Shown: positions 3,770 to 7,479 of the stretch, in pieces
Layout of the letters: each line of letters begins with the position of its first letter
Position numbering within the stretch: position 1 is the first letter of the stretch
UHGV virus genome: UHGV-0172517
Length of the DNA: 29,893 nt
DNA from: a virus
Direction: 5' to 3' (one strand)
Position numbers and translations under genes: made by a program
The notes under the pieces: model-generated
The model's database searches: none
What the model was told of the DNA's origin: nothing
The model's input: the letters and a program-made list of their open reading frames with translations, nothing else

Positions 3770-4765
3770 GTGACCGTGAGAGCACTACTGACCCCTGAAA
3801 TTGCCCCGCGTATGGGGATCGTATTGTTCAGACCAGGTTCAGAGCTGATGCCCCTGTTTATGCAGGGGCGTGTCCTGCTGGAGCCTGAGCCGGAACGTTA
3901 TTCATCTTTCGCCAGTGGTGCCGTTCCGGCGGCATCACAACCGCTGGCGGATGATCCTGCCGTTCGGGCCGTGTTCCGCAATGAGGCAGTGATCCGTCGT
4001 GCTGGTGGAGTGGAATGTCTTGAAAGCTGGTTACTTCGTGAAAAAGGCTGCCAGTGGCCTCATTCCGACTGGCACAGCGAGAACATGACCACAATGCGAC
4101 ACGCTCCGGGTGCAATCCGTCTGTGCTGGCACTGCGATAACCAGCTGCGCGATCAGTTCACGGAACGGCTGGAATCAATGGCAACGGATAACTGTGCCCG
4201 CTGGGTGTTATCTGTTGTGCGCCGTGATCTCGGTTTTGATGATAGTCACGTTGTGACAATGCCGGAACTGTGCTGGTGGCTGGTTCGTAATGACCTGGCT
4301 GATGCCTTACCGGAAAGTGCAGCCCGTAAGGCACTGAGATTACCGAAGCCTGTTGTGCCGTCTGTCACCCGGGAGAGTGACCTTGTTCCTTCGGTTCCTG
4401 CCACCAGCATTATCCAGGATAAAGCGAAAAAGGTGCTGGCGCTGAAAGTGGATCCAGAGTCGCCGGAGTCTTTTATGTTACGCCCAAAACGTCGCCGCTG
4501 GGTTAATGAAAAGTACACGCGCTGGGTTAAGACACAGCCGTGTGCATGTTGTGGAAAGCCTGCTGATGATCCCCATCACCTGATAGGCCACGGTCAGGGT
4601 GGAATGGGTACAAAAGCGCATGACCTCTTTGTGTTGCCTTTGTGCAGAAAGCATCACGACGAGCTGCATGCGGATACCGTGGCATTTGAAGAGATGTATG
4701 GTTCCCAGCTGGAGCTGATATTTCGTTTTATCGATCGTGCGCTGGCAATAGGCGTACTGGCGTAA
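3770..4765 (+). CDS. DUF968 (YdfU-like) protein with C-terminal HNH-like Cys/His motif
   Basis: 331 aa ORF; C-terminus CACCGKPADDPHHLIGHGQGGMGTKAHDLFVLPLCRKHHDELH carries an HNH-like metal-binding pattern; resembles the Qin prophage YdfU family, which precedes Q. Start codon (GTG 3770 versus internal ATGs) is uncertain. Confidence 0.7.
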   Translation: MTVRALLTPEIAPRMGIVLFRPGSELMPLFMQGRVLLEPEPERYSSFASGAVPAASQPLADDPAVRAVFRNEAVIRRAGGVECLESWLLREKGCQWPHSDWHSENMTTMRHAPGAIRLCWHCDNQLRDQFTERLESMATDNCARWVLSVVRRDLGFDDSHVVTMPELCWWLVRNDLADALPESAARKALRLPKPVVPSVTRESDLVPSVPATSIIQDKAKKVLALKVDPESPESFMLRPKRRRWVNEKYTRWVKTQPCACCGKPADDPHHLIGHGQGGMGTKAHDLFVLPLCRKHHDELHADTVAFEEMYGSQLELIFRFIDRALAIGVLA

Positions 4766-4778
4766 GTGGAGAACGAGC

Positions 4779-5531
4779 ATGAACCTTGAAGCCTTACCAA
4801 AATATTACTCCCCAAAATCTCCAAAATTGAGCGATGACGCACCGGCGACAGGCTCAGGTGGTTTAACGATTACGGATGTGATGGCTGCGCAGGGGATGGT
4901 GCAGTCGAAAGCACCGCTTGGGTTTGCCTTATTCCTGGCAAAAGTTGGTGTTCAGGATCCTCAATTTGCGATTGAAGGTCTGCTCAATTACGCGATGGCA
5001 CTGGATAACCCGACATTGAACAAATTGAGTGAAGAAACCCGGTTACAGATCATCCCTTACCTTGTGAATTTTGCCTTTGCTGATTATTCCAGGTCTGCGG
5101 CAAGTAAGGCTCGCTGTGAGCATTGTGCTGGTACTGGATTTCATAATGTATTGCGCGAAGTGGTGAAACACTCCAGAAGCGGGGAATCTGTTATCAAGGA
5201 AGAGTGGGTGAAGGAACTATGTCAGCATTGTCATGGTAAGGGAGAAGTCAGCACAGCGTGCAGAGGGTGTAAGGGTAAAGGTATTGTCCTGGATGAAAAA
5301 AGGACCCGGCTTCATGGCACGCCTGTTTATAAGATTTGTGGGCGTTGCAATGGAAATCGGTTTAGCCGTTTACCAACCACACTGGCGCGGCATCATGTCC
5401 AGAAGCTGGTACCAGACCTGACGGATTATCAGTGGTACAAAGGATATGCAGATGTCATTGATAAACTGGTGACAAAGTGCTGGCAGGAAGAAGCATATGC
5501 TGAGGCGCAATTAAGAAAAGTGACGAGATAA
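4779..5531 (+). CDS. Q: Late-gene antiterminator Q (lambda Q family, QuuQ-like, with extra Zn-binding CxxC motifs)
   Basis: 250 aa; GGAGA SD 7 nt upstream. N-terminus YSPKSPKLSDD…TDVMAAQGM resembles lambda Q (HSPKSPMMSD…TDVMAAMGM, from memory); multiple CxxC pairs. Sits immediately upstream of the lysis cassette. Confidence 0.8.
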   Translation: MNLEALPKYYSPKSPKLSDDAPATGSGGLTITDVMAAQGMVQSKAPLGFALFLAKVGVQDPQFAIEGLLNYAMALDNPTLNKLSEETRLQIIPYLVNFAFADYSRSAASKARCEHCAGTGFHNVLREVVKHSRSGESVIKEEWVKELCQHCHGKGEVSTACRGCKGKGIVLDEKRTRLHGTPVYKICGRCNGNRFSRLPTTLARHHVQKLVPDLTDYQWYKGYADVIDKLVTKCWQEEAYAEAQLRKVTR

Positions 5532-5559
5532 ATGATTTTCGCCGAAGATGGCGACATGA

Positions 5560-5600
5560 TTCTTGCATTTTTCAAAAAATTTGGTTAGGATTCTCCTAAC
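5560..5600 (+). promoter_or_regulatory. Candidate late promoter (PR'-like) and qut region
   Basis: TTGCAT (-35), 17-bp spacer, TAGGAT (-10) about 30 nt downstream of the Q stop, overlapping a small dyad ttaggattctcctaa. Position mirrors lambda PR'. Confidence 0.35.
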
Positions 5601-5635
5601 GATGGGCTTTGTGTGTCTACCGTTGATAATCTTCA

Positions 5636-5662
5636 AGAAACCGCCACCGAGCGGTTTTTTAT
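5636..5662 (+). terminator. Hairpin plus T-run (tR'-like candidate)
   Basis: gaaaccgc-caccgag-cggtttttt: a 7-bp stem followed by six T residues, ~40-60 nt downstream of the candidate late promoter. Confidence 0.4.
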
Positions 5663-5819
5663 TGATGTCAATTGTGTTTTTAAGGCTCTCCTTCCTTAAA
5701 GTGTGTTGTACAAAAAACTGGCAGCCAGCTACGCTCATTTTGAAAAAGTGACACCCTTCAATGTTTCTTTTGAATGGAATTGCTACCCATAAATCTCTAT
5801 CAAAAACAGGAGAGCATAT

Positions 5820-6062
5820 ATGGTGGATCGTTGTTCTGTTTGTGAGCAGTCATTAAGTTATTCACGAGAAGTTGAACAAGATGGCGTTGAATATAAATCT
5901 TGCCCAAAATGTTCTGCTGATGCCGGAGTGCACGTTTTTTATAAAACAATAGACTTTGGTTATAGGGATATGGGAGACGGAAGGCATATCGTTCAGTCAT
6001 GGTGTCCGGCTTGTCGTTCTGGTGAAAAACCTTCTATACCACCAGCATTTAAATGTTGTTAA
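5820..6062 (+). CDS. Small Cys-rich putative zinc-ribbon protein (moron; function unknown)
   Basis: 80 aa ORF with strong SD AGGAGAG 5 nt before the ATG; CxxC pairs at residues 5/8, 28/31, 62/65 and a terminal CC; AT-rich relative to flanks; followed by its own terminator. Confidence 0.55.
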   Translation: MVDRCSVCEQSLSYSREVEQDGVEYKSCPKCSADAGVHVFYKTIDFGYRDMGDGRHIVQSWCPACRSGEKPSIPPAFKCC

Positions 6063-6079
6063 CTCAATGAATTATAAAA

Positions 6080-6108
6080 AGAGGCTGCCTGTGGGCGGCC
6101 TTTTTTGT
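6080..6108 (+). terminator. Rho-independent terminator downstream of the small Cys-rich ORF
   Basis: aggctgcc-tgtg-ggcggcct, an 8-bp stem with one G-U pair, followed by tttttt. Confidence 0.6.
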
Positions 6109-6193
6109 GCACTACGCAACTTTTGCGACTCAGCGCTATAACCAGCTTCTTTCCCTTCACTCGTTGCACTTCCGATAACCGGAGGTGGGAATT

Positions 6194-6535
6194 ATGAAAA
6201 TGCATAACGATCCTCATTCCTGGTCTGACTTACTTGAATTGTTACAGAGCTGGTGGCGTGGAGACACACCGCTGGGCGCAGTAATTATGTCGATCGTTAT
6301 GGCTGGCTTGCGCATTGCCTATTTTGGCGGTGGTGGTGGCTGGAAGCGAAAAACGCTCGAGATTTTGCTCTGCGGCGCTCTGACGCTGACTTTTGCATCC
6401 GCTCTTGAGTATGTCGGATGGCCTAAATCGCTTTCTGTTGCCATTGGTGGTGGTGTTGGGTTGATCGGTGTCGATGCTATTCGTGGGGCTGCAATGAGAG
6501 TAATCGGTAACAAGTTCGGTGGCTCTAAGGAGTAA
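6194..6535 (+). CDS. Class I (lambda S-type, three-TMD) holin with Met-Lys-Met dual-start motif
   Basis: ORF track starts at GTG 6185; ATG at 6194 (GGAGG SD ~9 nt upstream) then Lys and a second ATG at 6200. Three hydrophobic segments and a charged C-terminus; topology and the MKM motif parallel lambda S107/S105. Immediately upstream of R. Confidence 0.8.
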   Translation: MKMHNDPHSWSDLLELLQSWWRGDTPLGAVIMSIVMAGLRIAYFGGGGGWKRKTLEILLCGALTLTFASALEYVGWPKSLSVAIGGGVGLIGVDAIRGAAMRVIGNKFGGSKE

Positions 6536-6538
6536 TTT

Positions 6539-7015
6539 ATGCAGGTACTAAATTCCCAGCGTAAAGCTTTCCTCGATATGTTGGCGTGGTCAGAAGGAAC
6601 GGATAACGGGCGACAGCCAACCCGCAATCACGGCTACGACGTTATTGTAGGTGGTGAGTTATTCACGGATTACTCCGATCACCCTCGCAAACTTGTCACG
6701 CTAAACCCCAAACTCAAATCAACAGCAGCCGGACGTTACCAGCTTCTTTCCCGTTGGTGGGATGCCTATCGTAAGCAGCTTGGCCTGAAAGACTTCTCTC
6801 CAAAAAGCCAGGACGCTGTTGCACTGCAGCAGATTAAGGAGCGTGGCGCTTTACCGATGATTGATCGCGGTGACATCCGTCAGGCAATCGACCGTTGCAG
6901 CAATATCTGGGCTTCACTGCCGGGCGCTGGTTATGGCCAGTTCGAGCATAAGGCTGACAGCCTGATTGCAAAATTCAAAGAGGCTGGCGGAACGGTCAGA
7001 GAGATTGAGGTATGA
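6539..7015 (+). CDS. R: Endolysin R (lytic transglycosylase)
   Basis: 158 aa; sequence …[57 protein letters not shown]… matches lambda R almost residue for residue as I recall it; AAGGAG SD. Confidence 0.95.
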
Positions 7016-7479
7016 GCAGAGTCACCGCGATTATTTATGCTCTGGTTATCTGCATCATCGTCTGCCTGTCGTGGGCGGTCAATCATTACCGTGATAACGC
7101 CATCGCCTACAAAGAACAGCGTGATAAAAAAGTCAGTGAGCTGAAGCAGGCGACCGCCACCATTACTGACATGCAGATGCGTCAGCGTGATGTTGCTGCG
7201 CTCGATGCAAAATACACGAAGGAGTTAGCTGATGCGAAAGCTGAAAATGATGCTCTTCGGCGCAAGCTTGATAATGGTGGTCGGGTGCTCGTCAAAGGAA
7301 AATGCTCTGTGCCATCCTCAGCCGAAACCTCCAGCGCCTCCGGCATGGGCAATGATGCCACCGTCGAACTCTCTCCAGTTGCTGGACGAAACGTTCTCGG
7401 TATCCGGGACGGAATCATCAGAGACCAGACAGCACTGAGAACGCTTCAGGAATATATCAGGACGCAATGCCTTCGATGA
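7012..7479 (+). CDS. Rz: Spanin inner-membrane subunit Rz (i-spanin)
   Basis: 155 aa; N-terminal [30 protein letters not shown]… and …[30 protein letters not shown] match lambda Rz; the C-terminal third diverges from lambda. ATGA overlap with R. Confidence 0.9.
7232..7438 (+). CDS. Rz1: Spanin outer-membrane lipoprotein subunit Rz1 (o-spanin), embedded in the +1 frame of Rz
   Basis: 68 aa ORF wholly inside Rz; AAGGAG SD 7 nt upstream; [21 protein letters not shown]… carries a lipobox (VVGC) and a Pro-rich mature region ([11 protein letters not shown]), like lambda Rz1. Confidence 0.85.

Follow-up and report, generated by a model that had tools for sequence, protein, structure and literature searches.

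At the lambda late promoter pR', the first six transcribed positions (AACGAT, +1 to +6) form a -10-like element that is bound again by sigma70 and brings about a promoter-proximal pause, and the GGG that follows at +7 to +9 is a discriminator-like element that strengthens this pause (PMC4005639; PMC5001585). The pause falls at +16/+17, and U is preferred at the RNA 3' end (PMC5001585). The Q-binding element of lambdoid pR' promoters lies between the -35 and -10 hexamers (PMC4914094; PMC9388147). Lambda Q contacts a 13-bp site through a helix-turn-helix (positions 1-4) and a zinc-ribbon arm (positions 11-13), and a -35-like site beside the lambda pause element docks sigma region 4 during Q loading (PMC9388147). 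The Q-lambda proteins form the family PF03589, which is separate from the Q21 (PF06530) and Q82 (PF06323) families (PMC9388147; PMC7171158). Among the RNAs that run from pR' to tR', StxS of Stx1/Stx2a phages is an Hfq-binding RNA of 258 nt with known targets, which RNase E shortens to 74 nt; no role has been assigned to lambda 6S RNA.

Here we analyse the DNA downstream of the Q gene in UHGV virus genome UHGV-0172517, a stretch of 29,893 nucleotides that we call the window. We conclude that 5563-5663 is very probably the late-gene control cassette (pR'-qut-tR') of a lambdoid E. coli prophage with a Q protein of the Q-lambda family. A preliminary description had proposed a lambda-family Q and PR'-qut layout for this DNA, and the proposal is upheld by a PF03589 Q, a position-by-position match to lambda pR', conservation among relatives and a ~65-nt RNA in E. 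coli K-12.

Results

Genomic setting and the Q gene

A lambdoid E. coli prophage makes up the window, and positions 5532-6200 are 100% identical in several E. coli chromosomes; strain MINF_9A (NZ_LR890334) is one 100% identical carrier of the prophage. The RefSeq gene order runs from a KilA-N protein, a DUF968 protein and an antitermination protein to a hypothetical 80-aa protein and a lambda-family holin, followed by GH24 lysozyme and a lysis protein and, past the lysis genes, by HNH endonuclease and small terminase. In the window, neither Q nor the late genes are disrupted (Table 1). PF03589 is the only Pfam family that its Q matches, to the exclusion of both PF06530 (Q21) and PF06323 (Q82), and a phmmer comparison with lambda Q (PDB 7ubm) gives E = 8.5e-38. 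The Pfam match and the alignment also reveal an insert of ~40 aa in the zinc 'arm', which carries two extra CxxCxGxG motifs.

The interval downstream of Q had been described as AT-rich and devoid of a credible ORF, and both statements hold. GC content is 39-41% in 5532-5819 against ~50% in the flanking genes, and in the identical E. coli chromosomes the RefSeq/PGAP annotation is free of genes from the end of Q to the next ORF. Two mechanical ORFs, of 62 aa on the plus strand and 75 aa on the minus strand, cross the boundary between recombination modules and nothing supports either of them. At the cassette site, no feature lies under the match among the 8 listed of 198 matching RefSeq records. 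In Rfam, no family matches 5532-5819; all matches are sub-threshold and to the region of the second terminator.

Table 1 Coordinates of the Q gene, the late-gene control cassette and the downstream features in the window
Feature	Position	Strand	Evidence or remark
Q antiterminator gene, 250 aa	4779..5531	+	Pfam PF03589, E = 9.5e-54; TAA stop 5529-5531
pR' -35 hexamer TTGCAT	5563-5568	+	31 nt past Q stop; ungapped alignment with lambda TTGACT
17-bp spacer TTTTCAAAAAATTTGGT, position of putative Q-binding element	5569-5585	+	11/17 identical to lambda spacer TATTGAATAAAATTGGG
DNA dyad GTTAGGA-TTC-TCCTAAC	5584..5600		Overlaps -10 to +3; perfect 7-bp inverted repeat
pR' -10 hexamer TAGGAT	5586-5591	+	Distance to AACGAT as for lambda TAAATT
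Predicted start site (+1 = A5598), pause element AACGAT (+1..+6) and GGG (+7..+9)	5598-5606	+	Homology to lambda
Possible 5'-terminal RNA hairpin of late transcript, +1..+27	5598..5624	+	Predicted MFE fold
Predicted sigma70-dependent pause position, +16/+17	5613..5614	+	By analogy with lambda
Intrinsic terminator tR'	5635..5663	+	10-bp stem 5635-5660; U-tract (T6-A-TT) 5655-5663
80-aa Cys-rich ORF	5820-6062	+	phrog_7682, unknown function; RefSeq hypothetical
Second terminator, 3' of 80-aa ORF	6077-6106	+	-19.6 kcal/mol, z = -5.3
Late lysis genes holin, endolysin and Rz spanin	6194..7479	+	Pfam PF05106 (holin); PHROG endolysin, Rz-like spanin

A probable late promoter in register with lambda pR'

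The TTGCAT-17 bp-TAGGAT element that the preliminary description placed ~30 nt after the Q stop is found as stated (Table 1). Taken alone, its two hexamers are not beyond chance, with 3/6 and 4/6 agreement with the sigma70 consensus (7/12 in total). A generic promoter scan with a threshold of 9/12 did not call the TTGCAT/TAGGAT pair, and it found no plus-strand promoter-like site in 4500-7000; its single promoter-like match is on the minus strand (5619->5590), where 1 was found against 2.9 expected by chance.

Placed side by side without gaps, lambda reads TTGACT TATTGAATAAAATTGGG TAAATT TGACTC AACGATGGG and the window reads TTGCAT TTTTCAAAAAATTTGGT TAGGAT TCTCCT AACGATGGG. The lambda pR' geometry is therefore matched in the -35, the 17-bp spacer, the -10, the 6-nt gap and an identical AACGATGGG; this last element, which corresponds to lambda pR' +1..+9 and lies 6 nt past the -10, occurs once in the window. 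It is the decisive feature of the match and is absent from the preliminary description. Within the spacer, the blocks TTCAAAAAA (5571-5579) and TGG (5582-5584) stand at the positions of lambda TTGAATAAA and TGG. The composite pattern TTG-N20-TANNNT-N6-AACGAT has a single occurrence in the 29.9-kb window, where shuffled sequences give an expectation of 0.01.

Conservation across Q relatives

We compared 17 loci from species-representative genomes, with Q identities from 99% down to 40% (Escherichia, Shigella, Mangrovibacter, Kosakonia, Phytobacter, Atlantibacter, Scandinavium, Buttiauxella and Entomohabitans), and 160 loci from viral contigs, many of which were duplicated between two scans. The second viral scan, based on a Q alignment, yielded near-identical loci that had already been collected and hardly widened the diversity, which came from the genome-contig scan.

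The layout recurs downstream of Q relatives of 40-100% identity in about nine genera and in viral contigs. All loci with readable sequence past Q, except one (L015), carry the cassette or a variant with a one-base change in the pause element. In 51 distinct sequences spanning -36..+30, AACGATGGG, TTCAAAAAA and TGG are at least 90% conserved, and the -35 usually begins TTGCA (37/51 distinct relatives). The -10 reads TAGGAT, TAAGAT, TAAAAT, TAGAAT, TAATAT, TAGTAT, TAGCAT or TAAATT, with A2 and T6 constant; across the 51 sequences its variation is thus confined to TAnnAT or TAAATT.

T occupies +17 in all 31 distinct relatives compared, and by analogy with lambda this would fit a pause with U at the RNA 3' end. 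The G at +8 and the G at +18 likewise fit what we take to be the pause consensus, G(-10)/Y(-1)/G(+1).

The terminator tR' and its covariation

A hairpin followed by a T-run had been reported ~40-60 nt downstream of the promoter, and our analysis agrees with this. The stem (5635-5660) begins 44-47 nt past the -10 and has a CCGC/GCGG core at 5641-5644/5651-5654, which encloses a loop at 5645-5650. Its RNA fold reaches -11.7 kcal/mol with z = -5.1, equalled by 0/200 shuffles, and the predicted terminated RNA from A5598 measures ~63-66 nt. This stem is the weakest in the family, with just 4 G-C pairs and an A-U/G-U extension; phages SfV and Ayreon carry the annotation of a putative rho-independent terminator at the homologous site. 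A generic terminator scan called neither of the two plus-strand terminators (tR' and 6077-6106). Judging from its stated rules, we infer that the scan missed them by letting the stem grow into the T-run, which leaves the tail short of T.

A terminator stands at the same place (+33..+67) in 169/176 loci, duplicates included, which represent 38 distinct sequences. Across loci, its core starts at +33..+48 (median +43) and ends at +47..+67 (median +58). Terminators were aligned with constant flanks before pairs were counted, as MAFFT shifted the register between the forms with a 4-nt and a 6-nt loop. The resulting alignment is centred on the hairpin and comprises 28 distinct terminators; 90.9% of its cells are paired and double changes are found at 7/9 pairs. 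Covariation scores 0.378, compared with 0.187 for shuffles, of which 0/500 reach the observed value. Pairing collapses once the partner is slid by one or more columns, with 56-62% left at a shift of one. An alignment built around the predicted hairpin leans towards structure; the effect is large nonetheless. The anatomy of the cassette, its homology to lambda pR', and its conservation and covariation across relatives are all direct observations of this comparison.

A K-12 small RNA from the homologous cassette

The cryptic prophage Qin of E. coli K-12 carries ydfT (quuQ), whose 250-aa product is 94% identical to the Q of the window. The Qin cassette downstream of ydfT reads TTTGCATTTTTCAAAAAATATGGATAAAATTTTTTCAACGATGGGC...CCCGCTGATGAGCGGGTTTT, and from this sequence +1 is predicted at 1,642,422 on the minus strand of U00096.3, which corresponds to 1,640,446 in U00096.2 (offset 1976, checked with dicA). 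Shinhara et al. 2011 list a small RNA, ECS025, at 1640387<-1640446 ('IGR, Prophage (Qin/Kim)'), with the sequence AACGAUGGGCUUUGUAUACCCGACGUUAAGAAAAAGUAGAAAACCCGCUGAUGAGCGGGU, which begins AACGAUGGGC and ends GCGGGU. On the reported northern blot it measures ~65 nt in exponential and stationary phase, with a 2-3-fold rise upon cold shock. The dRNA-seq data of Romero et al. 2014 contain a class I TSS (TAP-enriched, leading edge of transcription) at RVS 1640444-1640447, and ECS025 is listed there between cspF and ydfT.

The 5' end of ECS025 (1640446) is the A of AACGAU that was predicted as +1, with the class I TSS within 1 nt, and its 3' end is the terminator, at a published length of 60-65 nt. 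Since the K-12 RNA starts at this A and ends at the terminator, the promoter and its terminated transcript are experimentally shown in a close homologue. Transcript mapping, which the preliminary description had named as a check, is in this way supplied by published Qin data, which put the 5' end of a sister element at the predicted +1. In their entries for ECS025, Shinhara et al. 2011 and Romero et al. 2014 describe a prophage sRNA and do not identify it as a pR' transcript; the portion of the Cappable-seq supplement used here has no entry at the K-12 coordinate.

ECS025 and the window cassette share an orthologous position, a nearly identical -35 and spacer, the first 15 transcribed bases, and a predicted two-hairpin RNA with the terminator at equal distance. 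The trait of the ECS025 family is a ~60-65-nt RNA starting AACGAUGGGCUUUGU, which the window fits by sequence and position only. They differ in the -10, which is TAAAAT in K-12 Qin and TAGGAT in the window, and in the terminator, CCCGCU-GAUG-AGCGGG in Qin compared with CCGC-CACCGA-GCGG in the window. The 3' arm of the 5' hairpin and the linker are also unlike those of the window, and Qin continues into the cspF/cspB region where the window has the 80-aa ORF.

These data bear on whether the hairpin and T-run merely end the early-right (Q) operon, with TTGCAT/TAGGAT a chance match and the late promoter elsewhere, at the 80-aa ORF or the holin. Such an account draws on hexamers that are poor against the consensus and were left uncalled by the generic scan, and on the fact that a terminator past the last early gene is unremarkable. 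However, the K-12 RNA starts at the A of AACGAU, with no read-in from Q; the spacing is exactly that of lambda pR'; AACGATGGG has a single occurrence in the window; across genera, conservation extends to all four of -35, spacer, -10 and pause element; and the same scan found no plus-strand promoter-like site in 4500-7000. We consider this account very improbable.

The K-12 transcript also raises the question of whether the cassette is mainly a stand-alone sRNA gene of the ECS025 family, whose ~65-nt RNA would act in trans like StxS, with control by Q secondary or lost. The K-12 homologue is stably detected on a northern blot and rises 2-3-fold on cold shock according to the published report, Stx phages make a short pR'-tR' RNA that functions as an Hfq-dependent sRNA, and in its predicted fold the RNA has an architecture common among sRNAs, with a 5' hairpin followed by an A/U-rich unpaired stretch and then by a terminator that ends in a run of U. 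Nevertheless, the pause and loading region accounts for the conserved part, +1..+27, whereas the single-stranded +28..+40, the would-be seed, varies freely between close relatives. In the parts of the published work used here, 13 deletion mutants of sRNA regions are given as being without a growth phenotype, the primer list of Additional File 8 includes ECS025, and ECS025 is not among the RNAs reported as reduced in an hfq mutant. Q and the late genes of the window are intact, and a role of the RNA in trans would be compatible with our main explanation, as an added function of the same transcript. A stand-alone sRNA gene is thus distinctly unlikely. We regard as unlikely, too, a role of the ~65-nt pR'-tR' RNA as a lysogen-expressed, StxS-like riboregulator, in which the variable linker +28..+40 would set lineage-specific targets.

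The dyad and other small hairpins

The preliminary description had also noted a small dyad overlapping the promoter, in connection with qut. The dyad is present at 5584-5600, and the generic scan reports it as well, as a minus-strand hairpin; as a qut element, however, it did not stand, being restricted to one subclade. At least 6/7 pairs are kept in only 10/27 distinct relatives, all of them in the TAGGAT subclade, other genera included, and in the other 17 relatives, including the active K-12 cassette and lambda, the dyad is degraded to 2-5/7 pairs. Not being conserved across the family, it was rejected as a qut or operator element. On the sequence comparison, the key qut element is the predicted pause element AACGATGGG together with the spacer at the position of the putative Q-binding element, rather than the dyad.

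It could still be argued that the dyad is the operator of a regulator, or a minus-strand terminator, and as such the true site of control in place of Q or in addition to it, as a perfect 7-bp inverted repeat is centred on the -10/+1 region and keeps 6-7/7 pairs in the TAGGAT subclade, also in other genera. Besides its degradation in most relatives, its arms are already constrained as the -10 hexamer and the start and pause element, and to its right there is no convergent gene on the minus strand for which a terminator would be required. This reading is extremely improbable, and we retain the pR'-qut-tR' cassette under the control of Q.

Two further small hairpins were considered. The 5'-terminal RNA hairpin (+1..+27) is predicted in most relatives, in lambda in another register, with 95% of cells paired over 31 relatives. 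However, it varies on one side at a time and covaries no better than shuffles do, and we therefore do not claim it as a functional structure. The second, a hairpin at 5539-5554 past the Q stop, is also found in lambda, but in relatives its pairs are lost with no compensatory change, and beyond the Escherichia clade the hairpin is missing; it was rejected as part of the cassette.

Boundaries of the module

Megablast similarity to SfV, Ayreon, mEp460 and many Stx2c phages covers 5400-5664, that is, from inside Q exactly to the end of the terminator, which indicates that Q, promoter and terminator travel as one module. In a natural recombinant (L080), a promoter of the window type is joined to the lambda 6S region exactly past AACGATGGG. 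On the other side, ~5699-6199 (the 80-aa ORF, its leader and its terminator) is also found behind an unrelated gene in E. coli E7476. Because the similarity stops at 5664 and ~5699-6199 recurs behind an unrelated gene, we delimit the working cassette to 5563-5663. The interval 5532-5819 of the preliminary description does contain the cassette, but its right-hand part, 5664-5819, belongs to the next module and consists of a linker and the leader of the next gene. A separate promoter for the 80-aa ORF was sought in 5664-5819 and rejected; inspection was unconvincing and the scan gave no plus-strand promoter-like site.

Proposed mechanism

By analogy with lambda, we infer the pause position, the binding of Q and Q-dependent readthrough as follows. 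Host sigma70 RNA polymerase would initiate at A5598 from TTGCAT-17-TAGGAT. Sigma70 would then bind again, to the -10-like AACGAT(GGG) at +1..+9, and polymerase would pause near +16/+17. Without Q, polymerase would escape and terminate at 5635-5663, with release of an RNA of ~63-66 nt. With Q present, the protein would bind the spacer as its Q-binding element and load onto the paused complex, probably with help from NusA, making it resistant to terminators. The Q-modified polymerase would be expected to pass tR' and the stronger terminator at 6077-6106 and to transcribe the genes for holin, endolysin, Rz and packaging.

Discussion

The cassette is an ordinary new example of a textbook system, whose K-12 counterpart has already been seen as an RNA, and it leaves the understanding of Q antitermination unchanged. 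What our analysis adds is the exact late promoter, predicted start site (5598) and tR' of a prophage type for which none of the 8 RefSeq records listed annotates them here, and a likely origin for the orphan K-12 small RNA ECS025, as the pR' transcript of Qin. In addition, the 51 promoter and 38 terminator variants amount to a natural mutagenesis series for the Q-binding and pause elements of the Q-lambda type, and the set includes a subgroup of Q proteins with an enlarged zinc arm.

The system resembles lambda in its PF03589 Q, in the order and spacing of its elements and in an intrinsic terminator that precedes the lysis genes. It differs in the length of the terminated RNA, predicted at ~65 nt compared with 193-194 nt in lambda (termination at +193, PMC4914094). 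The -35 TTGCAT is weaker than lambda TTGACT, and the spacer core is TTCAAAAAA instead of TTGAATAAA. One base upstream of the pause element, where lambda has a -35-like sequence that we take to be TTGACT, the window has TTCTCC (3/6) and its relatives have TTnnCn; TTGACT beside the pause element is a lambda-specific trait and does not define the family.

The Q protein itself also departs from that of lambda, as a second CxxCxGxG pair is inserted in the 'arm', which in lambda contacts the Q-binding element and sigma region 4. With an arm enlarged in this way, contacts with the Q-binding element may differ from those of lambda, and, in this subgroup of 250-aa Q proteins, loading of the two-zinc, DnaJ-like arm onto the paused polymerase may follow a geometry unlike that of lambda Q even though the qut site is lambda-like.

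Phages 21 and 82 have Q proteins of unrelated families (PF06530, PF06323). The phage 82 pause is at +25, and the predicted pause element of the window, at +1..+6 as in lambda, sets it apart from that phage. With its predicted short RNA, the cassette can be placed beside StxS and phages 21, 82, phi80 and P22, whose antitermination-controlled late promoters give short constitutive RNAs in lysogens.

Junctions at the pause element and in the terminator

In the viral contig L080, the first 175 nt past the Q stop show the promoter of this type of Q fused to the lambda 6S RNA region, and this contig is a natural recombinant. The join falls exactly after the shared AACGATGGG, so the pause element serves as the point where Q-specific modules recombine with those that follow; a second junction lies within the terminator in L070, another of the loci compared. 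The pause element also carries single-base variants in the viral contigs L057/L127 and L077/L139, with the remaining cassette identical: the variant AACAATGGG is nearer to the -10 consensus and GACGATGGG alters +1.

Downstream modules

The 80-aa ORF contains three CxxC pairs and a C-terminal KCC, has a good ribosome-binding site and matches phrog_7682, with no match in Pfam. Its terminator is strong (-19.6 kcal/mol). A generic terminator scan missed both convincing plus-strand terminators, this one and tR', and returned nine weak candidates, presumably since an A-U/G-U extension of the stem consumes the T-run that is sought afterwards.

The module with this ORF recurs in E. coli E7476 (locus L182), behind an unrelated 187-aa gene. 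The layout 5' of the shared module is different there: the 187-aa protein, which has no Pfam match, is followed by a terminator-like hairpin (GCTGCCGTCAGGCAGCTTTTT) and then by TTGACA-N18-TAAATC, a sequence arrangement that may represent a further late-control cassette, so far unrecognised. In two distant relatives, L018 and L019, whose Q is about 40–44% identical, tRNA genes stand immediately 3' of tR'. Stx phages reportedly share this arrangement, with tRNA genes directly after tR'.

Features of the late control region and of the loci compared
Feature	Positions	Location or composition
CxxCxG motifs of Q (four)	5115-5351	C113/C116, C148/C151, C160/C163, C187/C190 (residues ~113-190)
6-bp hairpin TCGCCG-AAGA-TGGCGA	5539-5554	directly 3' of Q stop
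Possible 5'-terminal hairpin	5598-5624	nt 1-27 of predicted late transcript
Terminator tR'	5635-5663	
Module with 80-aa ORF	about 5699-6199	
Cys-rich 80-aa ORF and own terminator	5820-6106	between tR' and holin
Terminator of 80-aa ORF	6077-6106	
Alternative layout in E. coli E7476	L182 1340-1500	5' of shared module
tRNA genes	L018 2467-2720	Met-CAT, Arg-TCT
tRNA gene	L019 2450-2526	Arg-TCT alone

Hairpins flanking the promoter and the zinc arm of Q

The predicted late transcript is able to fold into a hairpin that begins at +1. This hairpin is formable in most relatives and its pairing is retained in 95% of the cells of their alignment, with no significant covariation across them. It could stabilise the mRNA; alternatively, it could be a mere reflection of DNA-level constraints on the pause region. 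In lambda a comparable 5' hairpin can form in another register (+2..+25).

Variants of the hairpin after the Q stop disrupt its pairs in relatives and are not compensated, and the hairpin was not found in relatives beyond the Escherichia clade. Lambda also has a hairpin after Q (TTGCCA-CGGA-TGGCAA), which sits 10 nt further from the lambda -35.

The Pfam model DnaJ_CXXCXGXG scores 30.9 bits on Q, below its cut-off of 32.7, and the set of motifs looks like a DnaJ-type two-zinc module. The insert is still longer in the more distant relatives L018-L020. Although both proteins belong to the same lambda family, lambda Q has two CxxCxG motifs as opposed to the four of the window Q, and the corresponding arm of lambda Q makes contact both with the Q-binding element and with sigma region 4.
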